64,000 nucleotides of DNA from contig CAZHXI010000001.1 of the NCBI GenBank assembly GCA_964536515.1, positions 31,480-95,479 of the forward strand, in the 5' to 3' direction. Origin of the DNA: an uncultured Gammaproteobacteria bacterium (GTDB lineage Bacteria; Patescibacteriota; Patescibacteriia; CAYZDG01). Within the stretch, counting starts at the first letter, position 1, and each line of letters begins with the position of its first letter. Shown piece after piece: positions 8,701 through 56,811 of this stretch. The notes beneath the pieces were generated by a model. That model did not search any database. It was not told the DNA's origin and saw nothing but the letters and a program-made list of their open reading frames with translations. The position numbers and the translations under genes are program-made.

Positions 8701-10415
8701 CCATTAGCCTGAGCGGCCGTACGCCCCTGCGCTACTGCACCGAGGCTGCGGGAAACGCCTACGACGACAACCGCGATGGCACGAAAGAGTACTGGCGCGA
8801 TGCGGGGGTAGACGCGAATATTGATGGCGGCGGCACCGGCGGGGAGATAAGGGCTGCGTGCAACCCAGACCCCCTGGCGGCGTCGCCCTCTAGTACAGAT
8901 GATGGCTGCACGCTGGCTGAGATGAGCTCCGGGTGGGCGGTGGAGGAGCTTTCGGGTATGCACCTCTGGAACGTTCACTGGAGCCAGGTCGCCCGCATTG
9001 TGGCAGACGGCGACTACAACGCCTGCAATAAGCACTACTCCGTAATGCCAGAGCTACGTGAGTACACGTTCGAGATGCACGAGCCAACTAGGTCCGTTAC
9101 GCGTTTCGGCTTCTGGACAGACTGGCAGAACGACAGCGAGGGTGAGACCTGGGCTTTCTTCGGCGTCGACCGCGGCAGCGGACTCATCAACTACTTCATC
9201 GGCTACGTCAACGATACGGCGGGCAGCGGCGAGGACTGCACCGTGGACTTCAAGATCGTCACCAAGGAGCAGTGCTCGGTCGTCGCCGAGGTTCGGGCAG
9301 ACGATACGCACACGGCGTGGTTCGACCGTTTCAACGGCGGCACCTACTCCGACGCTAGCTTGGTCCCCGCCAACGATGCCGCTCCCTACGGCGCCCTGCC
9401 GGCTAACGCCGCTGCAGACCTGATGGGTGCCACCTGCGATCCCGATATCCTGGCAGCTTCGGACTCGCTGAGTATCGATGAGGGCTGCGCGTTGCCCATC
9501 GGCAAGTTCGCCCTGCGGGCCAACGGCTCGCAGGCCGAGCGCGGCGGCACGCCGCTGGCCTGTCCCGTGGGCGGGTGCGCCGTGCCGCAGTGCACCCTCG
9601 ACCGAGCCAACAGCTGCGGCACCGCTGGCCAGACTACCGCCTGCTTCGATGCACTGGCTACGCCGGGAATCGGCTTCTGCTCCGGCAACCAGGTGCCCAG
9701 CGCAGCGAACGAGGGAACCAGGGTCGAGGGCGCCGTGCGCCTATCGCAGATGTTCGCCCGCAGCTACTACACCTGGACCCTAGACCCCGCCACCCACCGC
9801 TACCGCATCAACGACTGCCTTAACGACGATACGATTCAGGTAGCCATTGCCGCATCCCCCACCGGGGTAGACTCCGGCAGCGGTTGCTGGGACAGGCGCA
9901 AGCTGCTATCCACGCCAGATCCTGCCCCCACCACGCTCCGCCCGCGGGTACCCGAGATTAGCATCAACGGCAATTCCAGCGACACGCCCGAGGTGGCAGC
10001 CAGCGTGGGCGATACTGTGGAGCTGCGCTTCAGCTCGCTGCTGAACGCCGACCGCCTGCCGCTGCGCTTCATCCTGGTTGACTGGGGCGACGGCGAGCGG
10101 ACCGTTACCTCGCGGCTGAGCATCAACCACCAGCCGTCCGTGGCTAGCGGCCACCTGTTCACGCACACCTACTCTACCCGGCCGACCACGACCTGTGGGT
10201 CCGACTTCTGCGCCACCATTCGGGTGCAGATCGAGGACAACTGGGGCTTCTGCAACGGCGCACTCCCTGCGACGAGCTACAATATCAACAATGGCAACAT
10301 GAGCCTCAACCAGAGTGGCGCCGGCTGCTTCATTGGGAACGCCACCGATAGCCTCCGCTGGACCAGGGCAACCACTACCCTCCGCTTCTCCACCGCGGTA
10401 GAGGAAGACGTCTAG
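2757..10415 (+). CDS. Giant (2552 aa) Cys-rich cell-surface protein with CBM-like beta-sandwich modules and a C-terminal PKD-like domain
   Basis: N-terminal TM/signal (LILGTLVAAALLGTTLIATVSVA). More than 10 repeats of C-x(8-15)-[DN]-x-x-G-C-[QRST]-x-[FYL], e.g. DDAGCRKLL, DDVGCQAFVP, VDVGCSEFTS, RNVGCQAFMD. Three NGGFE/NGGFD-type carbohydrate-binding-like modules. VDWGDGE PKD-like motif near the C-terminus. Confidence 0.7.
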   Translation: MERRRLSGLILGTLVAAALLGTTLIATVSVARLRERAFAAVGFGGTGAILKTITQGSGAAIATPGFPVVADPGVRTQNFLSSLGDAIGSALESSGKLLVKNTLSRFLGELARGTAEWIATGSPGQMPLFETQGGYEFMAATRDAATAEFLDSLGSAYGVDVCNPELGAKLVIHYSSLPSSRLDTPRCSLKQIQENWAELLPNNQAFLQRFSAALEPDQNDLGIALTLEKKLVVERETKANAAILERLESQGLKPLKDLAGNIVTPAAAVNEQIRQTLGLSAQKELSFIGDPVADAIGIFTNTLGNRLREKWLKQGFVNIADVFNRTGSSGGLFGGAGRYSVAEPRFAALAGLELGTSGSIDVVGELSACSDPADPGFGNQCVLDPSFAQAVQQQLTVREAMERGLLRGEWAFGYLQDGSEPRYGTGYPYSAMVVMRTKRIVPVGWELAAQAAKAFGQGVTLDHVLHCYEDPAAAGDGSRPVDCQINGINPFYHLVDPNWLLKVPATYCVRRGASAELLTEEYICNQDTNGDSFVDCVNLDSNINGIAAPVDGDPSSKDEYLRVIQRAEYCADEQSCIAENADGTCRAYGYCFEEKQTFSLGDNACPSQFASCVGVTTPSGQQTAYIQDSVQTCPTGAAGCQWYSRRKSGANWSVAPTDRIYLNSEAATCSPDDAGCRKLLRFGQGTNLVPNGGFEQYDRHLPSDPNGTDNFFINGGTARGRAYTNAADVYEGQASFRLTRSGSISVLAETGSEVAGRTFTASVASKNCTAGSLSLLDGDGGAIGAPVNLQISGPDTDNGQWHTATITGTTQAPGTSLTVQVTGLNASVDSDCLLDSLALTEGSARATLAYGAGRSVHISSRATQCSQDDVGCQAFVPTSGDPTVFGRITANDYCPAQCVGYQNYSPLINTFEEREGASAPAPSNFIPSTARSCSAVDVGCSEFTSLAEVPEGGERVAYFSQVQQCVPEATPSVGTYYTWEGSDTAGYQLRVWQLLRTNISGPLAPCTNLSLDPSIQPPVCLDTAENRATCDLNAGNPDCREVFDSNATSHGVLWSRVVQATNDCQQYRRTGTDFVYNVSPRLARRCPAAANGCRQYRGATGGNTRTVLLADFETSSAAGWGGTRVALTTEALQVGGHSLLALGASGSVTLRRTEPLAMRPGHQYMLTVWVKGSDRDIPAGNVTLRGGLRRLLGALGATPASAQPGPAENLVFNAGPTPIGGEWQRLQIGPVTPTTQASTMTFDITVAIGGLRSAYFDNIQLKEVTSDTFVVQNSWETPQACDNPPGLPNGTDSNPRTEPGAMVGCSAYRVAGRQVTLRSFNRLCAERNVGCQAFMDTANSASPFAQRFNSTCSLGAPVATPTVCSSDGYQRCVVGAGEASCRYTQTSDYDPSSAAEPLVADEDQVPVLGDRVTYLVDDPAAYCSAEVAGCTQLGLPRINKQAWSGSGAAPANGIVSWQDVYKVANPDQFSRSLCSVGQLWCAAHRVSGGGTLTFRDPQGSLAGESRTCEYRTGVQIGSQLVTGWFRTGTDDGCRATSNYSLPLNGGPGYDRFVGICPAQYSGCTNYRNPQPSATGGERDNYFLRSSVDSSSCNGLVDVAGGCMLFRDPAQPALYSSQYSYPPYRLPGQAPVATSTLDSNVVLKVRRDRSCSQWYSCGSSVAVPGSPTGQRVCTSLTSCTRLNPATNQCDNPGGGSFPVGSAGFPNEFTFASPDDSTRWRNLSGYTVPGIQFTGGPGLVSRGFTPYSNMEQIGLSATVSNGGFDDAADSLASTDGVGWHSCDSGAPAVPAAQACSYVVSANRVREGRAALRFSSTVGAVTTLRHGVVAVAPNSTYAVSVQLNTVDLLAGDVALEVLDGGGTVQLRLQQGSGQGWQTLLGQFTATGSVTLRLVASADASGSAYVDDVKIEPVLQVNGEPRFVGQQCRVYPRGDAPSCRYTQADGEYRGITGYCLQPDPRDPSRCIQWWPVDVVAGQSFDVFGETISLSGRTPLRYCTEAAGNAYDDNRDGTKEYWRDAGVDANIDGGGTGGEIRAACNPDPLAASPSSTDDGCTLAEMSSGWAVEELSGMHLWNVHWSQVARIVADGDYNACNKHYSVMPELREYTFEMHEPTRSVTRFGFWTDWQNDSEGETWAFFGVDRGSGLINYFIGYVNDTAGSGEDCTVDFKIVTKEQCSVVAEVRADDTHTAWFDRFNGGTYSDASLVPANDAAPYGALPANAAADLMGATCDPDILAASDSLSIDEGCALPIGKFALRANGSQAERGGTPLACPVGGCAVPQCTLDRANSCGTAGQTTACFDALATPGIGFCSGNQVPSAANEGTRVEGAVRLSQMFARSYYTWTLDPATHRYRINDCLNDDTIQVAIAASPTGVDSGSGCWDRRKLLSTPDPAPTTLRPRVPEISINGNSSDTPEVAASVGDTVELRFSSLLNADRLPLRFILVDWGDGERTVTSRLSINHQPSVASGHLFTHTYSTRPTTTCGSDFCATIRVQIEDNWGFCNGALPATSYNINNGNMSLNQSGAGCFIGNATDSLRWTRATTTLRFSTAVEEDV

Positions 10416-14355: not shown

Positions 14356-14383
14356 GTAGAGACGCATTGCAATGCGTCTCTAC
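14356..14383. repeat. Palindromic repeat family copy 1 (GTAGAGACG-CATTGCAATG-CGTCTCTAC), likely a bidirectional terminator
   Basis: Perfect 28-nt palindrome between convergent genes 13537..14340(+) and efp(-). Confidence 0.7.
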
Positions 14384-16533: not shown

Positions 16534-16564
16534 CGTAGAGACGGGTTTAAAACCCGTCTCTACG
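16534..16564. repeat. Palindromic repeat family copy 2 (GTAGAGACG-GGTTTAAAACC-CGTCTCTAC)
   Basis: 31-nt near-perfect palindrome in the divergent intergenic region between rpsF(-) and the methyltransferase(+). Confidence 0.7.
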
Positions 16565-16603: not shown

Positions 16604-17803
16604 ATGAACCGATACGTATTCCTCCTGGGCCGGGAGGCTGCCCTGGGCGCAGCCGAGGTAATTGCTACCGGCCGCTTCTCATCTATCGATGCTGCTGCCA
16701 GCGGCGGCGAGGTTCTAGTTGCCTCTACAGATACTGCCCTGGAGAACCCCCAGGCCTTCTTGGACCGTATCGGCGGGACGGTGAAGCTAGCAGGGGTTGT
16801 TTCGGAGGTCGAGGGACAGCCGTCTCTGGAAGACCTGCTAGCCCTGCTACCCGGCGAGGGCAAGGTTCACTTCGGCATCAGCTGGTACGGCGGGCAGGTG
16901 CCGGACCTAGAGAAACTGGGGCGCCAGATGAAGGCGGCGCTGCAGGCGCAAGATCGCTCCGCCCGTTTCGTCAGCAGCCGCAGTAACCCGCTGTCCTCCG
17001 TCATCGTGCGGACGCAGAAGCTGCTGGGCGCGAGGGGATGTGAAATCATAGTGGCAATCCTTAACGGTGGTGACGTAGGGTCGAGGCGCGCCTCGACCCT
17101 ACTGGGCCGGACCATCGCTGCACAAAATTTTATTGAGTACGGCCGGCGTGATGCCGGACGCCCCAGCCGCAACATCAACCGCGGCATGCTGCCGCCCAAG
17201 GTGGCGCAGGTGCTGCTGAATTTGGCGCAGGTTAAGCCGGGCGACACGGTGCTGGATCCGTTCTGCGGCACGGGCACGGTGCTGCAGGAGGCGCTGGTAA
17301 TGGGTGCCGGCAAGGCTATCGGCCGTGACGTAGATGACGACGCGGTGGAGGAGGCCACCGAGAACCTTTCGTGGCTGCCACGCCGCGCCCAGGTAGCGGG
17401 TACGTGGGAGGTCTACCGCCACGACGCACGCCAGGCCGACCGTAAGCTGCAGGATGGATCCATCGATGCGGTGGTAACCGAGCCGCTGCTGGGGCCGCTG
17501 CGGCCGCCGCGCCAGCACGAGGCGGTGGTCAAGCTGGTGGGGGAGCTGCAGCAGCTGTACCGGGCGTCGTTCGTGGCTGCGGCGGCCGCCCTAAAGCCCG
17601 GCGGCCGGCTGGTGGCCGTGCTGCCCGTGATCGGCGAGGTTTCCTCTGCCGACCTGGGTGGGCTGCCCGGCCTGAGCTCCGTCAGCCTGCTGCCCCAGGA
17701 CCTAGCCGCAAGGTTCGGCATCGACGTTGGCCAGCGATTGGTGTACCGCCGCCCCGGCCAGGCCGTAGGCCGCGCGGTGGTGGTTTTTGAAAAAAACCTG
17801 TAG
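16604..17803 (+). CDS. SAM-dependent RNA methyltransferase (Trm11/RlmL-like N2-G/N6-A family)
   Basis: DPFCGTGTVLQEALVMGAG SAM-binding motif I and a downstream VVTEPLLGPL (D/N-PPY-like) region. Start at ATG 16604; the track ORF from 16373 runs through the palindromic repeat. Confidence 0.55.
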   Translation: MNRYVFLLGREAALGAAEVIATGRFSSIDAAASGGEVLVASTDTALENPQAFLDRIGGTVKLAGVVSEVEGQPSLEDLLALLPGEGKVHFGISWYGGQVPDLEKLGRQMKAALQAQDRSARFVSSRSNPLSSVIVRTQKLLGARGCEIIVAILNGGDVGSRRASTLLGRTIAAQNFIEYGRRDAGRPSRNINRGMLPPKVAQVLLNLAQVKPGDTVLDPFCGTGTVLQEALVMGAGKAIGRDVDDDAVEEATENLSWLPRRAQVAGTWEVYRHDARQADRKLQDGSIDAVVTEPLLGPLRPPRQHEAVVKLVGELQQLYRASFVAAAAALKPGGRLVAVLPVIGEVSSADLGGLPGLSSVSLLPQDLAARFGIDVGQRLVYRRPGQAVGRAVVVFEKNL

Positions 17804-17830
17804 AGACGAGGCGCGCCTCGTCTCTACAGG
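17797..17830. repeat. Palindromic repeat family copy 3 (CCTGTAGAGACGAGGCG|CGCCTCGTCTCTACAGG), overlaps the methyltransferase stop codon
   Basis: 34-nt perfect palindrome; the TAG stop at 17801-17803 lies inside the left arm. Confidence 0.7.
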
Positions 17831-17909: not shown

Positions 17910-19004
17910 ATGCCTACCGAGAATGCCGCGAAAGAGCAGCCGGCGAGCGTGGCGCCCGCGTCATCGCTGGGCGTGGTCGTGAGGGGCAGCGACGGCAGCT
18001 TCCGCGTGTGGCAGGACGGCGAGTGGCGGCTGCTGGCCGCGGCTCCCGTGGTAGCGGCGCCGTCTAAGCCGACGTTCGGCGGCCCCAATGCCGCTAGCTA
18101 CTTCAGCGCAGCCGACGAGCAGGAGGCCCGCCGCCTAGCCCAGCGCCTAGATACCGCTCCCGAGCACAAGCGCTACTCCCTCGCGAAGATTATTGGGCAG
18201 GTGCAGGAGAGGGCTAAGGTGAGCATTGCCGGGCCTGCGGCGGACGCCTTCCGCCGTGCCGTGCTCACCTTCCTGCGGGGTACCCGGGGGCCGGTAGACT
18301 TCGGCGCCGTGCTGGTGCGTCCGGCTGACCAGGGCGGCGTGGGGCTGACGTCCGCTGAGTCGCAGGCGCTGGTGGCAATACTCTCCGTCATAGGCGACAA
18401 GGTCCGCGCCGAGGGCGGCGAGGTGGTGGATGACCCGGCGTTGAATCCGCCGGCCGCGGCGCCCGTGCCGCCGAAGCCGTCGGTCAAACCCGACGTAGAG
18501 ACGAGGCGCGCCTCGTCTCTACCGCCCGCGTCACCAACCCCCGTCGCACCCGTGCCGCCGCGGCCGATTGCGCCCCCTCTGCCCCGTCCCGCGGTTCCCC
18601 TGACGCCGCTCGCCAAGCCCCAGGCGGTGAACGACGTTCGTCCGGCTGCTCCAGCCGCGCGGGTAGCTCCACCCCGCCGCCTGGTTGGGCCGGTGGACGA
18701 GCTCCGCCAGATGGACATTGCCACCTTCCGTACGCTCGGCGCTACGCCGGCAGACCAGGCGAACGCCGTCGTGGCCAAGGTGCAGGCGCTCGGCCGGGAG
18801 TCGCTCACCCGGCACGCCGAGGGCCTGGCAGCCTGGCGTGAGTGCCCCGTGTACACCGCGTACCGCGCCATCGGCCTGCAGAGCATCCAGGGGGGCAAGC
18901 CCGTGGCCCAGGTCGTCGCCGAGCTGTTCCGTGACGGCAAGGCTACGCTGACCGAGGCTGAGTTCAACGCCGTGGCCGACGCCAACCGCCGGCTTCGCCT
19001 CTAG
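17910..19004 (+). CDS. Hypothetical protein with a central Pro-rich linker (secretion-locus associated)
   Basis: 364 aa; PAPVPPKPSVKP…PVAPVPPRPIAPPLPRPAVPLTPLAKP linker. Contains an in-frame copy of the palindromic repeat (encodes DVETRRASSLPP). Confidence 0.5.
   Translation: MPTENAAKEQPASVAPASSLGVVVRGSDGSFRVWQDGEWRLLAAAPVVAAPSKPTFGGPNAASYFSAADEQEARRLAQRLDTAPEHKRYSLAKIIGQVQERAKVSIAGPAADAFRRAVLTFLRGTRGPVDFGAVLVRPADQGGVGLTSAESQALVAILSVIGDKVRAEGGEVVDDPALNPPAAAPVPPKPSVKPDVETRRASSLPPASPTPVAPVPPRPIAPPLPRPAVPLTPLAKPQAVNDVRPAAPAARVAPPRRLVGPVDELRQMDIATFRTLGATPADQANAVVAKVQALGRESLTRHAEGLAAWRECPVYTAYRAIGLQSIQGGKPVAQVVAELFRDGKATLTEAEFNAVADANRRLRL
18495..18522. repeat. Palindromic repeat family copy 4, located inside a CDS
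   Basis: GTAGAGACGAGGCGCGCCTCGTCTCTAC, a 28-nt perfect palindrome within the Pro-rich linker of the 17910..19004 ORF. Confidence 0.7.
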
Positions 19005-30492: not shown

Positions 30493-31004
30493 ACGTCCGT
30501 CGCATCGCAGCTCTCACCCTGGCCGGCGTCAGCGCCGTTGCGGTGGTCGCCAGCTTAGCCATTGCCGGCTCGCCCTCCAGGGCGCGCCTGCAGCGGTACG
30601 ACTACCAGCGGGTAGCTGACCTGCAGACCATAGACGGCGCGGTGGTAACCTACGCCAGCCGGCAGTACCGCCTATCCGGTGAGGCCGGCCTACCTACCGG
30701 CGGCGCGCTGCTGCCCGAGAACCTAGCGGCGCTACGTCAGATGCCCGGCTACGGCGAGCTGTTCCTGCAGGACCCCATTACCGAGCAGCCCTACACCTAC
30801 CGCGTGGTGGACGGCGTTACCTACGAGCTGTGTGCGACTTTCCAGGCTGCCAGCCAAGAGCAGGCAGAGGATAGCCCCCTGGCTCCAACCTGGAGCCACG
30901 GCGTTGGGCCGACCTGCTTCACTCGGTCTATTGATCCCGTGCAGTTCGGTTCAGAGGGCAGCGGGTACCCGATTGGGGTACCGAAGCCGCTACCGCTGCA
31001 GTAG
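30489..31004 (+). CDS. Hypothetical membrane-anchored/secreted protein
   Basis: Overlaps the upstream stop by 4 nt; N-terminal signal-anchor AALTLAGVSAVAVVASLAIAG. Confidence 0.4.
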   Translation: MNVRRIAALTLAGVSAVAVVASLAIAGSPSRARLQRYDYQRVADLQTIDGAVVTYASRQYRLSGEAGLPTGGALLPENLAALRQMPGYGELFLQDPITEQPYTYRVVDGVTYELCATFQAASQEQAEDSPLAPTWSHGVGPTCFTRSIDPVQFGSEGSGYPIGVPKPLPLQ

Positions 31005-31457
31005 GGTAATCGCTGCGGCGAGCGTTGCCAGCTGCACGCCGTAGCCAATCCACGGCCGCACCAAGCCCCGCCCCAGCAGGCGGTGTGCCTTCAGGTGCAG
31101 CTGCTCGAACCAGCGCAGCCAGGGAATCCCCGGGCGCAGCGCAGCTATGCCCCAGAGTAGGTCTGGCAGAGCTGCGCCCGCTGCTGCCGCAATAGCTATC
31201 GGTCCGACGACGACGCCAGACCTCACCAGCCAGGCTAGGAGGATAACCCAGGTCGCGATATCCGCTGCGCCGAAAGTAATTACGAACCTCCGTGTGCTCC
31301 ATCCCCGTGCGTGGAGCCGGTCCAGCAGGTAGTCGTCGCCGTGGGGGATCATGTCTAGGATGAAGTGGCTCGCCAGGCCGAATAGCCCGGCCAGCGCGGG
31401 GCTGCCCAGGTTCTGCGTGGCGGCAATTGCTGCCGCGGCGTGCACTGCTATGAACAT
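30990..31457 (-). CDS. Membrane-bound metal-dependent hydrolase-like (YdjM/DUF457-like) protein
   Basis: HFILDMIPHGDDY motif within a 4-TM protein. The start may be internal, since the ORF abuts a tRNA. Confidence 0.4.
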   Translation of the reverse strand: MFIAVHAAAAIAATQNLGSPALAGLFGLASHFILDMIPHGDDYLLDRLHARGWSTRRFVITFGAADIATWVILLAWLVRSGVVVGPIAIAAAAGAALPDLLWGIAALRPGIPWLRWFEQLHLKAHRLLGRGLVRPWIGYGVQLATLAAAITLLQR

Positions 31458-31467: not shown

Positions 31468-31544
31468 TGGTAGCGGGGGGCGGAGTCGAACCGCCGACCT
31501 AAGGGTTATGAATCCTTCGCTCTTACCACCTGAGCTACCCCGCC
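31468..31544 (-). tRNA. tRNA with CAT anticodon (elongator Met or Ile2-lysidine)
   Basis: Cloverleaf GGCGGGG-TA-GCTCAGGTGGTAAGAGC-G-AAGGA-TTCATAA-CCCTT-AGGTC-GGCGGTTCGACTCCGCC-CCCCGCT-A-CCA (minus strand); encoded CCA. Confidence 0.8.
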
Positions 31545-31584: not shown

Positions 31585-31660
31585 TGGTAGCGGGGGCGGG
31601 ACTCGAACCCGCAACCTCTTGGTTATGAGCCAAGCGAGCTGCCAATTGCTCTACCCCGCA
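31585..31660 (-). tRNA. Second tRNA with CAT anticodon (Met/Ile2); 1-72 position is a U-U mismatch
   Basis: TGCGGGG-TA-GAGCAATTGGCAGCTC-G-CTTGG-CTCATAA-CCAAG-AGGTT-GCGGGTTCGAGTCCCGC-CCCCGCT-A-CCA (minus strand). Confidence 0.75.
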
Positions 31661-31716: not shown

Positions 31717-32001
31717 TTACAAGACCGCGTCCTTGGCCGCCTTGGCGACCCGGAACTTGACCACCGTCTTGGCGGCAATCTTAATCGACTCGCCGGTCGC
31801 TGGGTTGCGGCCCATGCGGGCGGGGCGGTCGATCTTCACCAGCTTCCCGAGGCCGGGAATGGTGAACTCGCCGGCGCGCTTCACCTCCTTGTAGGCGCCC
31901 TCTACCAGGGCGTTCAGGAAATTAGCGGCATCCTTCTTCGCGCCGCCGGTGCTGGTAGCCAGCATATCCAGCAGCTGCGACTTCGTTAGCTTCTGAGCCA
32001 T
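31717..32001 (-). CDS. hup: HU/IHF-family nucleoid-associated DNA-binding protein
   Basis: MAQKLTKSQLLDMLA…FTIPGLGKLVKIDRPARMGRNPATGESIKIAAKTVVKFRVAKAAKDAV, the HU arm signature (R-N-P-x-T-G). Confidence 0.85.
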   Translation of the reverse strand: MAQKLTKSQLLDMLATSTGGAKKDAANFLNALVEGAYKEVKRAGEFTIPGLGKLVKIDRPARMGRNPATGESIKIAAKTVVKFRVAKAAKDAVL

Positions 32002-32086
32002 AGCTTTAGGTTACGGTTTAGGTTAGGCCTGTATTATAAGGCTTTTTCAATAAAGGGAAATCCCCAGGCTAGGGGATTCGTGTACA

Positions 32087-32811: not shown

Positions 32812-33180
32812 ATGGATACGCTGCGCGACGTCGTTTCGGTTCAGTTCGTGGCTGCATGCCTGGGCGCGGCGCTGGTTCTGGTGGAGATATTTCGCCAGGG
32901 TGGCCGCTACAGCATTAAGCTGGTGACGGGCATTGGCCTGGGGTCTGCCCTGGTCTTAGCTATCGGCTCTGGCTACCTAGAGCTCACGGCGTTCTCCGTC
33001 CGCATCGTCGTCTTGAGCTGGCTCAGCTTCTTCGGCGGCTACCTGGGCGCGGCGCTGCTGGTGGCCCTGTACGCCGTGGCCGTGGTCAGCCTGTGCCTGG
33101 CCGTTGTCGGTCTCAATCGGACGTGGGGTTGGGTAAGCCAGCGGCTGACGCGTCCGCGAAGCCGTACTGTCCCTCACTGA
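32812..33180 (+). CDS. Small polytopic membrane protein (GtrA-like partner of the glycosyltransferase, by position)
   Basis: 122 aa, 4 hydrophobic helices; the start follows the GT2 stop by 2 nt. Confidence 0.4.
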   Translation: MDTLRDVVSVQFVAACLGAALVLVEIFRQGGRYSIKLVTGIGLGSALVLAIGSGYLELTAFSVRIVVLSWLSFFGGYLGAALLVALYAVAVVSLCLAVVGLNRTWGWVSQRLTRPRSRTVPH

Positions 33181-33183
33181 ATT

Positions 33184-33270
33184 TGGTGCCGGGGGAGGGG
33201 GTCGAACCCTCACGATCTTGCGATCTCGGGATTTTGAGTCCCGTGCGTCTGCCAGTTTCGCCACCCCGGC
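33184..33270 (-). tRNA. tRNA-Leu (CAA) with long variable arm
   Basis: GCCGGGG-TG-GCGAAACTGGCAGACGC-A-CGGGA-CTCAAAA-TCCCG-AGATCGCAAGATCGT-GAGGGTTCGACCCCCTC-CCCCGGC-A-CCA (minus strand). Confidence 0.8.
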
Positions 33271-33332
33271 TCGACGTCAGTCCACCATACCCTTGGGGCA
33301 GCGTCAACGCGACGGTATACTGACTGCCTGCT

Positions 33333-34106
33333 ATGAGCCGAACGATTGCCATCGTCAACCAGAAGGGCGGGGTGCGCAAGACCACTTCGGCCGTTACCAG
33401 GAGCCCAGCACTGGCCCGCCCGGGTTTCCGCGTGCTGCTGGTCGACGCAGACCCGCAGGGCAACGCTACGTCAGGCCTGGGCATAAACCCGCACGAGCTT
33501 CCGCACAGCCTGTACGATGTGATCGCCGAGGGGCCGACCACCGTCGCCGACGTACGGCTAGGCACGACCGTAGACAAGCTGCACGTGGTGCCCGCGCGGC
33601 CCGACCTAGCCGGGGCCAACGTAGAGCTGGTGGGCATGCCCGAGCGAGAGTTCCGCCTGCACCGGGCCCTGCAGCCGATTGCGGATGACTACGACTTCAT
33701 CATCATAGACAATCCTCCGTCTCTCGGCTTGTTGACCATCAACGGGCTGGTAGCGGCCCACGACGTGCTGATTCCCGTGCAGTGCGAGTACTACGCGCTG
33801 GAGGGGCTGGGCCAGCTGCTGCGCACGGTGGAGCTGGTCCGCAGCAACCTCAAGCCGGACCTCAACATACTCGGCGCTGTGATGACCATGTACGACGGCC
33901 GCAATAAGCTCAGCGAGGCGGTGTTCAACGAGCTGTACCAGTACTTCCCCAACCGCATCTTCCGCACCGTCATTCCGCGGACGGTCCGCTTGGCCGAGGC
34001 GCCCTCGCACGGGCAGGACATTGGCGTGTACGAGCCCGAGGGTAGGGCCGCCCGCGCCTACGGCAAGCTGGCCCAGGAGGTAGCTGCGGCGTACAGGGGC
34101 TGGTAG
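33333..34106 (+). CDS. parA: ParA/Soj chromosome partitioning ATPase
   Basis: Deviant Walker A AIVNQKGGVRKTT; VLLVDADPQGNATS; IIIDNPPSLG. Confidence 0.85.
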   Translation: MSRTIAIVNQKGGVRKTTSAVTRSPALARPGFRVLLVDADPQGNATSGLGINPHELPHSLYDVIAEGPTTVADVRLGTTVDKLHVVPARPDLAGANVELVGMPEREFRLHRALQPIADDYDFIIIDNPPSLGLLTINGLVAAHDVLIPVQCEYYALEGLGQLLRTVELVRSNLKPDLNILGAVMTMYDGRNKLSEAVFNELYQYFPNRIFRTVIPRTVRLAEAPSHGQDIGVYEPEGRAARAYGKLAQEVAAAYRGW

Positions 34107-34107
34107 G

Positions 34108-34173
34108 GGGAGGACTGAGGACGCAGGACTTAGGACATAGAACCCCAATCGTTTCCCGTCCTATGTCCTAAGT
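34108..34173. repeat. Heptameric direct repeats (gaGGAC tgaGGAC gcaGGAC ttaGGAC atagAAC) overlapping a 13-bp inverted repeat (ACTTAGGACATAG … CTATGTCCTAAGT, 20-nt spacer) between parA and parB
   Basis: Read directly from 34108-34173. Confidence 0.6.
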
Positions 34174-34196
34174 TCTGTTTCCTGTATTCTACCTGC

Positions 34197-35069
34197 ATGG
34201 CATCACCACTCGGCCGAGGACTGGGCGCAATCATTCCCTCGGCGAACCCTGTCCCGACTACCCCCGCTCCGGCCGTCGTTGCGCCGTCATCCGACGACCA
34301 GGTGTTACACCTGGCGCTGGGGCAATTGAAGCCAAACCCCCACCAGGCTCGCCAGGTATTCGACCCCGCCAGCCTGGATGAGCTGGTTTCGTCCATCCGT
34401 GAGCACGGCATTCTGGTGCCGCTCGTCGTTACCCCGACCGGGGACGGCTCGTACTACATTGTGGCGGGGGAGCGGCGGTTCCGCGCCGCTGGCCAGGCCG
34501 GGCTAGACACCGTGCCCGCCATTGTGCGGCAGGCCTCGGACCTGCAGCGCATGGAGCTGGGCCTAATCGAGAACATCCAGCGCACCGACCTGAACGCCGT
34601 TGAGCTCGCGCACGCCTACCAGAAGCTGGCAGACGAGTTCTCGCTGACGCAGGAGCAGATAGCGCAGAAGGTGGGCAAGGCGCGCCCCTCGGTGGCCAAC
34701 ACGCTGCGCGTGCTGCAGCTGCCGGACGAGGTCCAGCACGCCATAGCGGACGGCAAGATTACGTTCGCCCACGCCAAGGTGCTGCTCTCCACGCCCGAGG
34801 CCGAGCGCGACGCGCTGTTCCGCAAGATGCTGTCTGGCCAGCTATCGGTCCGTGCCTCGGCTATGGCAGCCGAGCCCAGCACCATCGTGCACAGCCACCG
34901 ACGCCGCAGGGGCAAGAGCCCGCAGCTGCAGGAGCTAGAGAAGCAGCTGCAGGATAAGCTGGGTACCAAGGTGCGCATCGGCGCCCAGGGCAACGGCGGC
35001 GAGATTAGCGTTACCTACTACGACCAGGCGGAGCTGGCGCGCATCAGCCGCCAGCTGCTGGGGGAGTGA
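34197..35069 (+). CDS. parB: ParB/Spo0J chromosome partitioning protein
   Basis: LVPLVVTP…YYIVAGERRFRAAGQAGLDTVPAIV ParB box; HTH region; C-terminal dimerisation segment. Confidence 0.85.
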   Translation: MASPLGRGLGAIIPSANPVPTTPAPAVVAPSSDDQVLHLALGQLKPNPHQARQVFDPASLDELVSSIREHGILVPLVVTPTGDGSYYIVAGERRFRAAGQAGLDTVPAIVRQASDLQRMELGLIENIQRTDLNAVELAHAYQKLADEFSLTQEQIAQKVGKARPSVANTLRVLQLPDEVQHAIADGKITFAHAKVLLSTPEAERDALFRKMLSGQLSVRASAMAAEPSTIVHSHRRRRGKSPQLQELEKQLQDKLGTKVRIGAQGNGGEISVTYYDQAELARISRQLLGE

Positions 35070-35085
35070 TAATCTTGCATGTCAT

Positions 35086-35102
35086 GCCGGGCTCGACCCG
35101 GC
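35086..35102 (+). terminator. Hairpin after parB (GCCGGGC-TCGA-CCCGGC)
   Basis: Perfect stem immediately 3' of the parB stop. Confidence 0.45.
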
Positions 35103-35108
35103 ATCTAT

Positions 35109-35138
35109 TTGACACCCCTCTAGACGGAGGGGTATAGC
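35109..35138 (+). promoter_or_regulatory. Sigma70-like promoter TTGACA-[CCCCTCTAGACGGAGGGG]-TATAGC with palindromic GC-rich spacer, followed by a ~95 nt hairpin-rich leader
   Basis: -35 TTGACA 35109-35114, 18-nt palindromic spacer, -10 TATAGC 35133-35138. Leader hairpins CTGCTCCT…AGGAGCAG and GGCTCG…CGAGCC. SD AAAGGAAAGG before ATG 35236. Confidence 0.5.
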
Positions 35139-35235
35139 TACCGAGCACTTGAATCTGCTCCTTGAAATTTCACAAAGTAGGAGCAGCCGTTGGCTCGTCG
35201 GACTCGAGCCGTAAGCAAGAAAGGAAAGGTGTGTC

Positions 35236-36087
35236 ATGGCTTTCCATGGTGCGTCTCCACATTTCTATGAATCTCCCGAAGTCGTTGAGGAATTCGGAAG
35301 AGATGGCGGCCTCATACATGAGGTCGTTGTAGCTGGACGGAAACAGGGAATCGGCAAAAAGTTTTGGGCATACCTAGCCCACAGCCCCGAGGTGTTCGAG
35401 GCTGTCATACAGTTCGTGAACGAAGGTAGGGCACGACCCTGCATTGAGTACAGGAGAGCCATTGGGCTACTGGAATCTGTTAATTCAATTGATGCCCAAC
35501 AGGCAGGGTACTGTTGGCTGGAGAAGCCACAGAATTACGGTGTCCACTACACCAAGGCTACGCTCGACGTGTGCATGGTCGAGAATGCCCAGGGTAAGGC
35601 TGACTGGCGTTTGGTATACCTATTCAACCTTAGCTTGAGCAATATTGTTAAGAAGCTAGAGCCGGGTAGCGTACACTACGTGCCGTTCGGTCTCGTTCTA
35701 GAGCGTCCGCCGTTAGGCGATTGGTCCCACGGGGCAAAGCCGGAGGGGTACTACCTAATTAACTTCAAGCCGCAATTCCTTGGGTGTAATTGGTCAGCCA
35801 AAGTTGAAGAGATGGAGAAGCTCGATGGTAGGTTCTTTTGGCCCAATCCTGCATCCATTGCTCAGGCGATTATGTCCGCGGGTACCATTCCCGGTGCCGA
35901 CCCGACCCAAGTGGGTCGACCGGAGAAAAAATTATTGCTCCGACATGGTGCACACGTAGCGTACGACGGGAATTTTGTTAGCATTACCCGCTGGCTCGAT
36001 GAGAAGAGCGTGCAGTGGTCGCCAATTGAAAAGGATGACGACCTCGCGAGCAGCGCTGGCGTATGCATTGGTTTACGATGGGAGTAA
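35236..36087 (+). CDS. Hypothetical protein, visibly lower GC than its neighbours (accessory gene)
   Basis: 283 aa; a GRKQGIGKKF segment vaguely GNAT-motif-A-like but misplaced. No confident family. Confidence 0.45.
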   Translation: MAFHGASPHFYESPEVVEEFGRDGGLIHEVVVAGRKQGIGKKFWAYLAHSPEVFEAVIQFVNEGRARPCIEYRRAIGLLESVNSIDAQQAGYCWLEKPQNYGVHYTKATLDVCMVENAQGKADWRLVYLFNLSLSNIVKKLEPGSVHYVPFGLVLERPPLGDWSHGAKPEGYYLINFKPQFLGCNWSAKVEEMEKLDGRFFWPNPASIAQAIMSAGTIPGADPTQVGRPEKKLLLRHGAHVAYDGNFVSITRWLDEKSVQWSPIEKDDDLASSAGVCIGLRWE

Positions 36088-36143
36088 CTGCCTGCTAGAG
36101 GCAGCCAAGGCCCCGGGAAAATCCCGGGGCCTCATTCTATTCT

Positions 36144-37637
36144 CTAGCTATCGTTCCGGCCGGGGAGGAAGCGGCGGAGTAGGCCGAGGTTGTCGTTGCG
36201 CAGCCTCTGCTTTATCTTGGCGCGGGCCTGGTTTGTAGCTACGAACTCTAGCCAGTCCTGCTTGGGCTTGCCGCCGGCCTTGTTGGCCGCGATTTCAACA
36301 ACGTCGCCGCTGTGCAGGTGGTGGGAGAGTGGAACCTGCATGCCGTTCACCCGCGCCCCGATGCAGCTGTCTCCCAGCTGGGTATGCACGTGGTAGGCAA
36401 AGTCTACGGGCGTGGCGCCCTCGGGCAGGTCGATTACGTCACCCTTGGGGGTGAACACGAACAGCCGGTGCGAGAACAGGTCCAGCCGCAGCCCCTCTAG
36501 GTACTGCTCGTGCGTCGGCGCCTCTTCCTGCCAGGCTTTGAGCTGCGTCAGCCACTCCCGCTGCCAGCGGCTTAGCCGCTTGGCGCTGCCCTCCTTGTAG
36601 CGCCAGTGCGAGGCTAGGCCGAACTCGGCCTGCTCGTGCATCTCGCGGTCGCGTATCTGGAACTCCACCACGTGGCCCTTGTCCGCGAATACGGTGGTGT
36701 GCAGCGAACGGTAGCCGTTGGACTTGGGCTGGGCAATGTAGTCTTTTATCCTGCCCTTCAGCGGCGTCCACAGGCGGTGCAGCACGCCCAGGCAGACGTA
36801 GCAGTCCGCCACCGTGGGCACCACTATGCGCAGGGCCACCAGGTCGTACACCTTGCTGGGGTCGTCGCCGTGGCGCCGCAGCTTGCGGTAGAGCGAGAAG
36901 CGGTGCTTGACCCGGCCCTCCAGGCTGATGATGGGCACGCCGTTCTGCTTCAGAGCCTTAACCGCCTCGTGCCTAATCTGCTCTAGGTACTTCTTCTCCG
37001 CCGGTAGCGCCTTGGCCATTAACGTATCCACCGACCTGGCGCCGTCTGGGTCGGCGTAGGGGAAGGCGGCGTCCTCCAGCTGGCCGCGTAGCTCGCCCAT
37101 GCCCAGCCGGTCCGCGATGGCGGCGTAGATGTCTATGCTCTCGCGGGCGATGCGCTGCTGCTTAACCGGCGGCAGCACGTCCAGCGTGGCTAGGTTATCT
37201 AGCCTATCCGCGAACTTGATGAGTATCACCCGCACGTCGTCCGCCATGGCCACGAACATCTTGCGTAGGTTCTCGGCGTAGCGTTCTAGCCCGCGGTACT
37301 TGAGCGTGCCCAGCTTGGTGATGCCGTCCACCAGCTTGGCTACCTCCTTGCCGAAGCGTTCCTGCACCTCGTCCTGCGTTCGCTCCGTGTCCTCCGGCAC
37401 ATCGTGCAGCAGGCCGGCCACGACCGTGGGCACGTCCATGCCCCAGCGGGCCAGGGTTAGGGCGGTGCGGGCGGGGTGGTTTATGTAGGGCTCGCCGCTG
37501 TGGCGCCTCTGGTCGCCGTGGGCCTCGGTCGCAAAGCGGTAGGCGTCCGCGATGGGCTGCACGTCGTCGCCGGGCCGCTGCTGCCGCACGGCGTTCAGTA
37601 TTTGCTCCAGCGTTGGCGCGGGCGGGGGCGTAGGCAT
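36144..37637 (-). CDS. rel: Bifunctional (p)ppGpp synthetase/hydrolase Rel (short form: HD + synthetase + TGS, no ACT)
   Basis: HD motif LLHDVPEDT; synthetase RIKDYIAQPKSNGYRSLHTTV; TGS-like VFTPKGDVIDLPEGATPVDFAYHVHTQLG. Confidence 0.85.
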   Translation of the reverse strand: MPTPPPAPTLEQILNAVRQQRPGDDVQPIADAYRFATEAHGDQRRHSGEPYINHPARTALTLARWGMDVPTVVAGLLHDVPEDTERTQDEVQERFGKEVAKLVDGITKLGTLKYRGLERYAENLRKMFVAMADDVRVILIKFADRLDNLATLDVLPPVKQQRIARESIDIYAAIADRLGMGELRGQLEDAAFPYADPDGARSVDTLMAKALPAEKKYLEQIRHEAVKALKQNGVPIISLEGRVKHRFSLYRKLRRHGDDPSKVYDLVALRIVVPTVADCYVCLGVLHRLWTPLKGRIKDYIAQPKSNGYRSLHTTVFADKGHVVEFQIRDREMHEQAEFGLASHWRYKEGSAKRLSRWQREWLTQLKAWQEEAPTHEQYLEGLRLDLFSHRLFVFTPKGDVIDLPEGATPVDFAYHVHTQLGDSCIGARVNGMQVPLSHHLHSGDVVEIAANKAGGKPKQDWLEFVATNQARAKIKQRLRNDNLGLLRRFLPGRNDS

Positions 37638-37690
37638 GGGGGAATAGTATCCCGAACCAGAGGCGCGCTGCTAGGCGACCTCGGTTCGGG

Positions 37691-37801
37691 ACCCCGCACC
37701 GGACGTAGTCCTGGTGCGGGGCAGGACTGGGGACGGAGGACAGAGGGCGGGATTTAGAACATAGAACTGAGAACACAGAGAGGGCGCCGCGAAGCGGCGC
37801 C
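37691..37801. repeat. Near-palindrome (CCCCGCACCGGAC…GTCCtGGTGCGGGG), then a heptamer direct-repeat array (cAGGAC tgGGGAC ggAGGAC … ttAGAAC atAGAAC tgAGAAC), then a GGGCGCCGC-GAA-GCGGCGCCC hairpin
   Basis: Read from 37691-37801, between the rel start (37637) and the end of paralog A (37818). Confidence 0.55.
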
Positions 37802-37817
37802 CCACATGTGTTTTGAC

Positions 37818-38246
37818 CTAGACTGCCTTGTCACGTTTCTTGTCTTCGGCCTCATCGCGTCTTCCTACGGCCGTACGTACCGTTATGAGCCCGAGGTCGT
37901 TGTTCAGCTCGGCATTTTTTTCCCAGACATGAATCGCCCTGCTCATCTCAGCGTGGTCCTTGAATATTCCAATGATGACGCGGCTACGGCGTAGCCCTAC
38001 GGGCAGATTCCTCCCAAGTAAGCTTTCTAGGTCAGCTTGGTATACATCTCCCGGGAAGATGACTAAGCAGCCGTCGAGCCGTTTTCCCTTGTCGTTACTA
38101 CCGCTGAGGTAGATGAAGGCAAAGAAGCTATTGGAGCTGATCCTTTTGGCCCGATCGATGTCTCTCAATGCTGCTCTGTGGAGGTCTTCCCAGACAAGGA
38201 TCTCAAACGAACCACTGGCGTTGCTGGTGGTGTATTCAATGAACAT
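37818..38246 (-). CDS. Hypothetical small protein, paralog A of a tandem pair (lower GC)
   Basis: Start at internal ATG 38246; the track ORF uses TTG at 38288, which overlaps the predicted -10. Shares an F-AF-Y-x-G…PGD-Y-A-L core with paralog B. Confidence 0.5.
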   Translation of the reverse strand: MFIEYTTSNASGSFEILVWEDLHRAALRDIDRAKRISSNSFFAFIYLSGSNDKGKRLDGCLVIFPGDVYQADLESLLGRNLPVGLRRSRVIIGIFKDHAEMSRAIHVWEKNAELNNDLGLITVRTAVGRRDEAEDKKRDKAV

Positions 38247-38282
38247 ATCTCTTACCGCCCTTTTGTTGGTTCTGTACGAATG

Positions 38283-38320
38283 GCGCAACGTTAAACCCCG
38301 CGGGTGCGGGTGTCAATCGT
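38283..38320 (-). promoter_or_regulatory. Promoter of paralog A: TTGACA-[CCCGCACCCGCGGGGTT]-TAACGT (minus strand)
   Basis: -35 at 38311-38316, 17-nt GC palindromic spacer, -10 at 38288-38293. Near-identical copy precedes paralog B. Confidence 0.55.
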
Positions 38321-38370
38321 TGGGGTGATGAAAGGGCGGCGCTTTTGCGCCGCCCTCAGGTTTAGCTTGC

Positions 38371-38778
38371 CTAGCTCGGAATGAGCTTCGTTCGTTCAGC
38401 GCTCTTTCGGTTCTCGATAGCAGCTTCTAGACGATCGTTGGCTTCGCGTCCGCAATCGAGCCTAAAGCTTTGTATCAAGGCAACCTCGTTACGTAGCGCC
38501 CCAAAGCTCACCTTGCAGGTCGTCAGATCATCGGCGACGATATGCATCGTTATCTGCCTCAGCGAGTCTGCGTAGCTATCTCCAGGCTTTACTAGCAGTG
38601 ACTCGCGTACCAAGCTGTTGGTTCCCGTCAGGCCCTCAACGTACACGAATGCCGCAAAGGTATCTGGAAACTGGGTAGCCATCTGGTTCAGGGCCTTCCT
38701 TATCTGGTTTGGAATTTGCTTGCGGGCAAGCCTATCAGCCCCTGCCTCAGGGTCTCTGCTGACGAAAGTAGTTACCAT
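38371..38778 (-). CDS. Hypothetical small protein, paralog B of the tandem pair
   Basis: 135 aa; ATG with perfect AGGAGG SD 5 nt upstream. FAAFVYVEGLTGTNSLVRESLLVKPGDSYADSL core aligns with paralog A. Confidence 0.55.
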   Translation of the reverse strand: MVTTFVSRDPEAGADRLARKQIPNQIRKALNQMATQFPDTFAAFVYVEGLTGTNSLVRESLLVKPGDSYADSLRQITMHIVADDLTTCKVSFGALRNEVALIQSFRLDCGREANDRLEAAIENRKSAERTKLIPS

Positions 38779-38814
38779 TGTTCCTCCTGGAGGATTGAAT
38801 ATTACGGTGCAATG

Positions 38815-38850
38815 GGCGCAACTTAAGCCCCGCGGGTGCGGGTGTCAATG
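38815..38850 (-). promoter_or_regulatory. Promoter of paralog B: TTGACA-[CCCGCACCCGCGGGGCT]-TAAGTT (minus strand)
   Basis: -35 at 38843-38848, 17-nt spacer, -10 at 38820-38825. 35/38 identical to the paralog A promoter. Confidence 0.55.
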
Positions 38851-38864
38851 CGCGGGCCGGCTAC

Positions 38865-39770
38865 CTACCGGTTGATGAGGTAGACGCCGGCCAGCAGCAC
38901 AGCCAGCGAGGCAGCCTTGCGCAGCAGCGTTGCTCTGCCGATGTCCTCCCTGCCCAGCTTGGGAACCAGCAGCGTAATGCCCAGGCCGATGAGGAAGGCG
39001 AACACCGGGTGCAGTCCGTTCACCAGCTGCACCAGGGCCAGGGGCGCCATCAGCGAGGCGGCCGCCAGCAGCAGCACGCCTACTGCGCTGATGATCTCGT
39101 TGATTGCGTTGAGCGCCAGCACGCCGGAGGTATTCGTCCGTACAGCTGCCACGAATTCACGGCGGTAGGTTGGAACCAGAGCGACAAGGGAGACTCCGGC
39201 TGCGGCGTAGCCCACGTACTGCCAGAAGGCGGTAACCCAGTAGCTCGCCTCAATGGCGACCAGCTTGAACAGGAGGTTGGTGGTCGCCAGTATCGCCGAT
39301 GCGAGCAGCATCTGCAGCAGCGGCTTCACCCGAACCTTTCCGGTTCCGGGCTGGAACATGAAGGCAACGGCAGCGCCGACGATGAGCAGGCCTCCCGTGG
39401 CTTGCGTTCCGGTTAGGGATTCGCCGAGGAAAGCTGCAGCGAGGATGAAGCCGAACAGTGGAATAGTCTGGAATGCAGGCACCACGTTGGAGGCGTCCTC
39501 GTGCTGCAGGGCGTACATGTACGGCAGCAGCGAAACAATGAAGAGCGCGCCGCTGCCGACCATTACCAGCGCCGGCAGCCAGCCAATGGCTAGCACGTCC
39601 GCGCCGAGCAGGGGGATAGCCAGGGCGATGGGTAGCCCGATGGCCGCCGAGAACAAAACCAGGGCGCCTATCCCCAGGCTGCGTGCGTACCTGCCGATGA
39701 GGTACTTATCGATGTGGTTGCTAATCGCCCACAGCACCGGGGCGCCGAGGGCGAGCAGGAACCAGTGCAT
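38865..39770 (-). CDS. EamA/DMT-family transporter
   Basis: 301 aa, 10 TM helices, two EamA-like halves. Confidence 0.65.
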   Translation of the reverse strand: MHWFLLALGAPVLWAISNHIDKYLIGRYARSLGIGALVLFSAAIGLPIALAIPLLGADVLAIGWLPALVMVGSGALFIVSLLPYMYALQHEDASNVVPAFQTIPLFGFILAAAFLGESLTGTQATGGLLIVGAAVAFMFQPGTGKVRVKPLLQMLLASAILATTNLLFKLVAIEASYWVTAFWQYVGYAAAGVSLVALVPTYRREFVAAVRTNTSGVLALNAINEIISAVGVLLLAAASLMAPLALVQLVNGLHPVFAFLIGLGITLLVPKLGREDIGRATLLRKAASLAVLLAGVYLINR

Positions 39771-52726: not shown

Positions 52727-52803
<77 letters not shown>

Positions 52804-56781: not shown

Positions 56782-56811
56782 CGTAGAGACGAGGCGCGCC
56801 TCGTCTCTACG
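56782..56811. repeat. Palindromic repeat family copy 5 (CGTAGAGACGAGGCG|CGCCTCGTCTCTACG)
   Basis: 30-nt perfect palindrome downstream of yqeY; acts as terminator and/or insulator before the giant adhesin promoter. Confidence 0.7.

Follow-up and report, generated by a model that had tools for sequence, protein, structure and literature searches.

Convergent heptad arrays between parA and parB in a Patescibacteria-like genome: a possible terminator-like hairpin with an embedded parB promoter

Why should the short spacer between the partition genes parA and parB carry runs of tandem 7-nt units, and are such runs a site for ParB, as their position invites one to suppose? We addressed this question in a 64-kb stretch of contig CAZHXI010000001.1 (hereafter the window) and in locus fragments of relatives of its source genome; gene starts in the window were taken from a crude caller. 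We tentatively propose a composite cis element in the parA-parB spacer, where reiterated heptads would make up both a terminator-like hairpin downstream of parA and, embedded in it, a parB promoter that is apparently leaderless. The arrays are probably not a docking site for ParB. Instead, the spacer is a local example of the heptamer arrays that are common in bacteria and functionally unexplained.

Two convergent arrays and a spacer-wide hairpin

The spacer holds two arrays of five heptads each in opposite orientations (Table 1), and the consensus over the window arrays is nnAGrAC in one orientation and GTyCTnn in the other. The first-pass annotation of this DNA had described five 7-mers (GAGGACT, GAGGACG, CAGGACT, TAGGACA, and TAGAAC), which we located at 34110-34143, within 2 nt of where they had been placed, and a 13-bp perfect inverted repeat with a 20-nt spacer, which is also present (ACTTAGGACATAG at 34128-34140 and CTATGTCCTAAGT at 34161-34173). 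Both elements are real, but that description overlooked the second, inverted array and the hairpin that spans the whole spacer. The 13-bp repeat, an inner stem that grows to ~18 pairs in the fold, forms only the core of this hairpin. The structure starts with the final base of the parA stop codon (34106) and closes at the base that precedes the parB AUG (34196), and the fold thereby juxtaposes the parA stop and the parB start. The inner two units of the arms are perfectly symmetrical, the outer units pair through their 5-nt core only, and the last unit of array 2 stops 4 nt short of the parB ATG.

The inner stem is followed by a U-rich tail, TCTGTTTCC, with 5 U in 9 nt, which resembles the tails CTCTGTGTTC and CATTCTATTC of terminator-like hairpins found in a scan of positions 33000-39000. 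A stable stem and a U-rich tail right past a stop codon are features of intrinsic terminators and of intercistronic hairpins that overlap the next promoter. The spacer hairpin differs from intrinsic terminators in its very long stem (>30 imperfect pairs), which is composed of 7-nt modules, in its loop of 14-20 nt compared to a consensus of 3-8 nt, and in a 3' arm that holds the -10-like element of the next gene. The complementarity of the arms, together with the location of the parB -10-like element in the 3' arm, suggests a role as both hairpin and promoter.

The first-pass annotation had named heptamer periodicity as the property on which its arrays should be judged. In the 64-kb window, runs of at least three G[GA]AC motifs at period 7 occurred 4 times compared to a mean of 0.085 in 200 dinucleotide shuffles (maximum 2), and the chance expectation for a run of five is ~4e-6; heptamer runs thus exceed chance. 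Moreover, all tandem AGRA[CT]NN pairs in the 64 kb lie at the parA-parB spacer or at a locus upstream of rel, and array 1 is included in the output of Tandem Repeats Finder. A motif-free lag-7 test was weaker, in that 3 of 200 shuffles reached the observed 21 matches in 28. Since this test is only modestly significant in the window alone, it is the comparative data that settle the periodicity. Within the heptads, columns A3, G4, A6, and C7 of nnAGrAC show little or no variation, and columns 1, 2, and 5 vary (16 units of the window and 10 of the relative L002); the core-column conservation in array 1 has P ~0.006. This pattern of conserved core and varying spacer columns in both arrays would be consistent with a binding site for some regulatory factor, which we consider possible.

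We compared 12 orthologous parA-parB spacers, 11 of which are distinct. A scan of metagenomes for ParB returned only relatives at ≤48% identity, which were used as controls. In 10 of the 11 distinct spacers, lag-7 autocorrelation was 0.47-0.60 and lag-14 autocorrelation 0.29-0.55, compared to ~0.28 at other lags; the exception was L002. By contrast, the 110-nt stretches that precede parB in 41 unrelated ParB loci gave a median lag-7 value of 0.28, and only one of these loci (L149) reached ≥0.45. The array keeps its position across ParB identities of 57-91% and G+C contents of 42-65%. Conservation of the spacer in other genomes of the lineage, which the first-pass annotation had proposed to check, therefore extends to periodicity and position and not to unit sequence (Table 1).

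This turnover is evident between the window and its relatives L192 and L193, whose ParB proteins are 89-91% identical and yet whose heptad units differ. Arm complementarity is retained in each of the three (z -5.4, -4.2, and -5.1, respectively), which implies that the arms change in concert. The spacer hairpins of further relatives gave z values of -6.8 (L189), -4.5 (L190), -2.9 (L004), -2.2 (L187), and -1.9 (L191). In L002, a different, perfect palindrome forms a hairpin (z -4.9) in place of the arrays, and the same palindrome lies within the hairpin loop of L189; this substitution implies that a hairpin is what is kept at the spacer site. Copy number did not differ among samples of any one strain (L005/6/7, L187/188, and window/L001/L194), a result that gives copy-number phase variation no support.

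The parB promoter motif, the rel tract, and the locus

With the exception of L002, the orthologous spacers end in CCTGTATYCT (which reads ATGTATCCT in L191), and a further 6 or 8 nt lead to the ATG. In the window, this motif, CCTGTATTCT, contains the -10-like hexamer TATTCT (34185-34190), located 6 nt ahead of the parB ATG. The heptads of array 2 stand in phase with the promoter heptad. Heptads -1 to -3 match CTGTATY at 4.4-4.6 of 7 positions in phase compared to 2.0 out of phase, and the likeness drops with further distance from the promoter. Relatives have arrays of the same type ahead of rel, of topA, and of a 150-aa gene. At the rel promoter of L002, ~11 NTGTYCT units lead into ATGTACT-AT and thus extend into the -10, and the arrays upstream of the L005 150-aa gene and of L008 topA also have promoter-like units, with CTGTATTCT present in both. 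Copies of the octamer TGTATTCT can overlap by one base, and tiling them gives a period of 7, which we record as an observation and not as an established cause. On the sense strand, pyrimidines make up 65-78% of the 40 nt that precede the parB ATG in 9 of the 11 distinct spacers; the promoter-side arm of L190 is only 55% pyrimidine.

A Shine-Dalgarno (SD)-like motif precedes only 9 of 93 genes in the window and the loci of L005, L008, and L192, and TANNNT hexamers peak 6-8 nt before start codons in the window and relatives' loci. Given the few SD motifs and the TANNNT peak, it is reasonable to infer leaderless or near-leaderless expression, and these sequence features suggest that leaderless or coupled translation is widespread in the lineage. 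The parB promoter at CCTGTATTCT likewise appears to be leaderless. Many individual genes in the same four loci have TANNNT 6-8 nt before ATG or have stop and start codons that nearly overlap. The motif CCTGTATT is scarce in the window, with copies only at parB and at a single further promoter-like site (32028). This sole other intergenic copy lies in an imperfect palindrome, CCTGTATTATAAGG (32028-32041), between a divergent HU-like gene (31717-32001, minus strand) and a glycosyltransferase gene (starting at 32087, plus strand), and may represent a bidirectional -10 region.

The first-pass annotation also placed a second array upstream of rel, beside palindromes, and here we agree: heptads at 37722-37742 and 37754-37774 lie next to hairpins. 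Read in the sense direction of rel, the order is a terminator (37803-37781), the heptad run, two hairpins, TACTAT, 6 nt, and ATG. The run itself (GTTCTCA GTTCTAT GTTCTAA ... GTCCTCC GTCCCCA GTCCTGC) is unstructured and pyrimidine-rich. The tail CTCTGTGTTC of the terminator-like hairpin extends into these heptads, and the hairpins at 37650-37721 separate the tract from the rel promoter.

Table 1. Features of the parA-parB and rel-upstream loci of the window, and heptad units of orthologous spacers in relatives.
Feature	Position	Strand	Remarks
parA	33333-34106	+	257 aa, ParA/Soj-type ATPase; Pfam AAA_31, CbiA, ParA
parA stop codon TAG	34104-34106	+	
Spacer-wide hairpin	34106-34196	+	RNA fold -43.1 kcal/mol, z -5.44; no equally stable fold in 200 shuffles
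Array 1	34109-34143	+	five nnAGrAC heptads, GGAGGAC TGAGGAC GCAGGAC TTAGGAC ATAGAAC; hairpin 5' arm
Hairpin loop CCCAATCGTTTCCC	34144-34157	+	minimum-free-energy structure
Array 2	34158-34192	+	five inverted heptads, GTCCTAT GTCCTAA GTTCTGT TTCCTGT ATTCTAC; pyrimidine-rich 3' arm
Conserved motif CCTGTATTCT	34181-34190	+	CCTGTATYCT-N6/8-ATG in 10 of 11 distinct orthologous spacers
parB	34197-35069	+	290 aa; Pfam ParB_N, HTH_ParB, ParB_C; canonical N-terminal, helix-turn-helix, and C-terminal domains
rel	36144-37637	-	497 aa; HD_4, RelA_SpoT, and TGS domains
-10-like TACTAT	37644-37649	-	6 nt ahead of rel ATG (37637-37635)
Two strong hairpins (37692-37721 and 37650-37690)	37650-37721	-	fold -82.9 kcal/mol, z -6.1
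rel-upstream heptads CAGGACT GGGGACG GAGGACA	37722-37742	+	GTCCT-type on rel sense strand
rel-upstream heptads TTAGAAC ATAGAAC TGAGAAC	37754-37774	+	GTTCT-type on rel sense strand; start right past upstream terminator
Terminator-like hairpin GGGGCGCCGC-TTC-GCGGCGCCCT of upstream 156-aa open reading frame	37781-37803	-	terminator scan, fold
Window spacer units (arm 1 / arm 2)			NNAGGAC / GTCCTNN
L192 units (arm 1 / arm 2)			CAGGATT / CTGAATC
L193 units (arm 1 / arm 2)			TCAGRAA / CTGACTT
L187 and L004 units (arm 1 / arm 2)			TAAGRA / TTAATCC
L189 units (arm 1 / arm 2)			ACAGAA / CTGTTTC
L005 and L008 units			GTTCTAG or TAGNNNN, then TATTCTN; both direct
L190 units (arm 1 / arm 2)			GTTACTC / GAGTAAC
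L191 units (arm 1 / arm 2)			AAAATGC / GCATTTT
L002 spacer units			none

The window has a G+C content of 65%. Its nearest public ParB matches are proteins named as Patescibacteria at only ~45-50% identity, and the closer ParB relatives (57-91% identity) form a small clade from groundwater and other metagenomes. Gene order in these relatives matches that of the window, with parA, parB, and rel (minus strand) followed by an EamA transporter gene and topA where present, and the ParB N-terminus M-x-SPLGRGLGAIIP is kept across the clade alignment. In the window, two unannotated open reading frames (ORFs) stand past rel and ahead of the EamA transporter gene and topA. These minus-strand ORFs of 156 and 135 aa (37818-38778) gave no Pfam or NCBIfam match, and third-position G+C is low in the 156-aa ORF. 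The pair is missing in L005, where the rel-EamA gap is 270 nt, and in L008, where topA directly follows rel, and is possibly an insertion. No DNA- or RNA-binding domain was found by Pfam and NCBIfam searches in the unannotated ORFs at 30990-31457, 32812-33180, 35236-36087, 37818-38288, and 38371-38778. An Rfam search of the window returned only four tRNAs, with no match at either heptad locus; these genes are at 31471-31544 (minus strand), 31588-31660 (minus strand), 33187-33270 (minus strand), and 52727-52800 (plus strand), one of them just upstream of parA. Elsewhere in the window, a very long ORF (2757-10415, 2552 aa) is followed by one of 1038 aa.

The clade also has a specific, dispersed palindromic hairpin, GTAGAGAC-N10-13-GTCTCTAC, with conserved outer arms around an inner part that varies in sequence but stays self-complementary. 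In the window it lies at 14356-14383, 16535-16563, 17800-17827, 18495-18522, and 56783-56810, with a variant at 17075-17102; three of these copies are identical over 28 bp (GTAGAGACGAGGCGCGCCTCGTCTCTAC). The five exact window copies compare to 0 expected, and none was found in 185 unrelated loci. Among the relatives it occurs at 516-544 of L002 and 155-183 of L189, in both cases inside the parA-parB spacer, and at 13637-13664 of L005 and 8166-8193 of L008. Several copies are at gene 3' ends. This palindrome could be a repetitive extragenic palindrome-like or terminator element, or an alternative site for a protein (ParB?).

Candidate functions of the arrays

In the arrangement that we tentatively favor, the transcript from parA would fold, by means of the convergent complementary arrays, into a long hairpin with a U-rich tail (UCUGUUUCC), which would serve parA as a terminator or insulator. 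parB would be expressed from its own, apparently leaderless mRNA by way of the CCTGTATYCT -10-like hexamer, in a genome that is poor in SD sequences. The promoter-side units would be in-phase, degenerate reiterations of CTGTATY, generated most simply by 7-bp slippage, and the distal arm would be a mirror copy of them, so that both arms would evolve together. The rel-upstream tract would be a pyrimidine-rich heptad run of like kind that directly follows another terminator.

Several results weigh against this proposal. A consensus terminator scan of positions 33000-39000 (loops of 3-8 nt) did not call the spacer hairpin because its loop is too long, and a sigma-70 consensus scan of the same interval found no -35/-10 pair (0 promoter-like sites). 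The spacers of L005 and L008 have two arrays in direct orientation and show no fold (z > +1), and the rel-upstream tracts lack an inverted partner, with 6 units (3+3) in the window and ~11 in L002. Together, the direct arrays and the unpaired rel tracts imply that heptads persist without a hairpin. Moreover, slippage alone leaves the period of 7 unexplained, and neutral slippage and decay would not yield the conserved core columns, which point instead to sequence-specific recognition. Heptads without hairpins and a conserved core do not fit a model based on the hairpin only, and thus two models that involve a binding factor stay alive.

One of these models, which we regard as doubtful, treats the arrays as a double-stranded operator, on which a small protein would polymerize along contiguous 7-bp units, direct and inverted, cover the -10 element, and repress or tune parB, rel, and other genes. 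The omega repressor on the heptad iterons of plasmid pSM19035 and Fur on hexamer arrays polymerize along contiguous units in this way. The conservation of the nnAGrAC core in the 16 window and 10 L002 heptads while columns 1, 2, and 5 are free, the recurrence of one core at two separate window loci and again at the L002 rel promoter, the confinement of tandem AGRA[CT]NN pairs to two loci, and the rarity of CCTGTATT would all agree with an operator, as would arrays that abut or overlap the -10-like elements of parB, rel, topA, and the 150-aa gene in relatives and arrays in L005, L008, and the rel tracts that have no potential to form a hairpin. The omega iterons of this Inc18 plasmid (consensus WATCACW) serve as operator and centromere, and their binder is a ribbon-helix-helix protein encoded by a gene of the same locus. 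The spacer resembles them in its contiguous 7-bp units, direct and inverted, beside partition-gene promoters, and has an omega-type layout of 5 + 5 convergent units, the last of which overlaps the -10-like hexamer. However, its consensus is nnAGrAC / GTyCTnn rather than WATCACW, its units vary among relatives, and its partition proteins are a canonical chromosomal ParA and a helix-turn-helix (HTH) ParB. Pfam and NCBIfam searches limited to the neighboring unannotated ORFs detected neither a ribbon-helix-helix nor any other DNA-binding domain, and a binder could be encoded elsewhere. An operator would also require a very loose or fast-changing specificity, given that close relatives carry different units and that those of L190 and L191 are unrelated. 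Arrays with the same core in many phyla fit a lineage-specific regulator poorly, and a 7-bp period puts successive sites on different faces of the helix. The other model, which seems to us quite unlikely, takes the heptad as a single-strand footprint on RNA or on the melted non-template strand, most plausibly of a cold-shock-domain protein or else of S1 or a HutP-like factor. By binding the 3' arm, such a factor would melt or prevent the hairpin and so allow factor-dependent read-through from parA to parB, or would aid translation of genes without an SD, a role that has been proposed for TAACTGA repeats (PMC4679880). The preferred heptamer of Bacillus subtilis CspB is the pyrimidine-rich GTCTTTG/T (PMC1904285), with one cold-shock domain per heptamer (reviewed in PMC4679880), and the sense units at parB (GTCCTAT, GTCCTAA, and GTTCTGT) and rel (GTTCTCA, GTTCTAT, and GTCCTCC) are similarly pyrimidine-rich 7-nt units that start with GT. 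Arrays at terminators and just before starts in an SD-poor genome would also parallel the TAACTGA repeats (PMC4679880) and those of Nostoc (bioRxiv 10.1101/2022.06.06.494920). In addition, a 7-nt footprint would account for the period, loose specificity would allow unit turnover, and the pyrimidine bias before the parB ATG in most spacers would be in keeping with such a binder. On the other hand, if the parB mRNA begins at ATG, the arrays exist in read-through RNA only; a six-frame search for cold-shock-domain motifs found nothing in the window and clade loci, which are genome fragments; the promoter-side arm of L190 is only 55% pyrimidine; and, for the HutP variant, UAG starts only 2 of 5 window units. 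We know of no natural tandem arrays of Csp sites with a defined function.

It is improbable that the arrays are neutral simple-sequence repeats, that is, slippage-prone heptanucleotide runs in non-coding DNA that lack a function of their own. AGRAC-core arrays in the intergenic DNA of many phyla, the background of lag-7 arrays in unrelated loci, and the fast unit turnover among close relatives favor this explanation, but arrays in 10 of 11 distinct orthologous spacers compared to 1 of 41 controls do not, nor do the conserved core of degenerate units, their phase with and similarity to the promoter heptad, the maintained arm complementarity, and the lack of copy-number polymorphism between samples. 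Far more improbable is a centromere-like site for ParB (or ParA) that would stand in for canonical parS. The arrays do sit between parA and parB, heptad arrays act as the centromere in the omega/delta system of pSM19035, and no canonical parS (a 16-bp palindrome near TGTTNCACGTGAAACA) lies within 4 mismatches in the 64-kb window, the best match having 5; this absence bears out the first-pass statement that the arrays are not canonical parS. The best parS matches of the relatives have 3-7 mismatches, which is chance-like, and parS sites may be located beyond the window. The spacer is like a chromosomal parS in that it adjoins parAB, but has tandem heptads instead of a match to the 16-bp palindrome, and HTH ParB proteins bind 16-bp palindromes and are not known to bind 7-bp tandem repeats. 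Moreover, like arrays stand at rel, topA, and other promoters and in other phyla. The window ParB is of the canonical chromosomal type, and an alignment of 11 clade members shows a nearly invariant HTH, whereas the heptads change even among ParB proteins that are 89-91% identical and vanish in L002, which makes sequence-specific recognition by ParB very unlikely. The first-pass suggestion of a binding site for a partition or regulatory protein is therefore partly supported: its regulatory half agrees with the regulatory positions and conserved core of the arrays, whereas its partition half is contradicted by the nearly invariant HTH and the changing units.

Other known sites fit poorly or were rejected. 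A HutP-type site consists of two sets of three UAG, 4 nt apart, whereas the window units start with GAG, GAG, CAG, UAG, and UAG; six UAG in phase occur in L008 only. Plasmid replication iterons are 17-22-bp repeats by a rep gene, whereas the period here is 7 and no rep gene is nearby. CTGT and ACAG both occur, but a LexA box would need another order and spacing of the two. CsrA sites would require GGA, which many units (AGAAC) lack, and the existing GGA motifs, 7 nt apart, are closer than known CsrA sites. SD/anti-SD sequestration is discounted by the location of the AGGA units 54-89 nt from the ATG, a recent mobile-element insertion by units that differ in every genome, and DnaA boxes or a replication origin by the lack of any resemblance.

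Heptad arrays beyond the clade

A scan of a genome collection (one genome per species) with a query of four GTYCT heptads (GTYCTNNGTYCTNNGTYCTNNGTYCT) returned at least 120 loci. Among the matches listed, AGRAC-core arrays (e.g., L009, L011, L026, L060, and L122) occur in Acidobacteriota, Planctomycetota, Verrucomicrobiota, Bacteroidota, Chloroflexota, cyanobacteria, and two other candidate-phyla-radiation genomes. TG is the commonest spacer dinucleotide among the listed intergenic matches and gives AGRACTG units, which the first units of the window (GGACTGA) resemble; in another frame, AGAACTG is GAACTGA, one base off TAACTGA. An inverted partner array within 120 nt was present in 9 of 120 listed matches, which gives them the layout of the window spacer, from a stop codon through two arrays to a start. 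The planctomycete locus L011 (1980-2057) is an example, with a stop codon, (AGGACAG)4, (GTCCTCT)4, an SD, and ATG, and L009 contains a further intergenic AGRAC-core array at 7794-7868. In 421 kb of unrelated loci, ~19 lag-7 arrays were present. In L149, an unrelated lineage with a 46% identical ParB, convergent heptad arrays lie directly upstream of parB (1322-1440), where >10 (TAGCGRA) units are followed by TATCATC TATCGGC TATCTGT, GGAGG, and ATG (fold z -2.4).

Comparable repeats have been described. In SD-poor regions of Beggiatoaceae, cyanobacteria, and Bacteroidetes, TAACTGA heptamers immediately precede start codons; they have no known function, and S1, Csp, and CsrA have been considered as factors that might bind them (PMC4679880). 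In Nostoc PCC 7120, deletion of contiguous heptamer repeats near promoters alters expression, and the binder is unknown (bioRxiv 10.1101/2022.06.06.494920). Heptanucleotides were the commonest class of long simple-sequence repeats in an earlier survey, as quoted by later work (Mrazek 2007, cited in PMC4679880). The arrays of the window share with these repeats contiguous 7-nt units in 3 to ≥6 copies, an intergenic location near starts or promoters, and an SD-poor context. They differ in that their units are degenerate, with a shared 5-nt core and variable spacer rather than perfect copies, in that two mirror-image arrays form a hairpin, and in that the units are in phase with, and apparently derived from, the promoter heptad. 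Furthermore, they keep one orthologous position across the clade despite turnover of the unit sequence, and the 64 kb contain only 2 loci compared to 169 TAACTGA repeat sets in a Beggiatoa genome (PMC4679880).

We think it unlikely that the period reflects the 7-nt footprint of a binder, whether a single-strand factor of the cold-shock type or an omega- or Fur-like polymerizing protein, and that weakly specific arrays of this sort are a cross-phylum device. If this were true, terminator hairpins and promoters of SD-less genes would be made factor-dependent across phyla, and the parA-parB spacer of this clade would be a clean model for unexplained bacterial heptanucleotide arrays.

These results correct an attractive but probably wrong reading, in that repeats beside par genes need not be centromeres, and they add a Patescibacteria-like clade to the organisms that have heptanucleotide arrays near promoters or start codons. 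An orthologous site that is kept despite unit turnover, with arms that change together and promoter-heptad copies that stand in phase, makes the choice between slippage from the -10 region and a 7-nt binder testable. For the lineage as a whole, the sequences suggest gene expression that is largely SD-independent and possibly leaderless.

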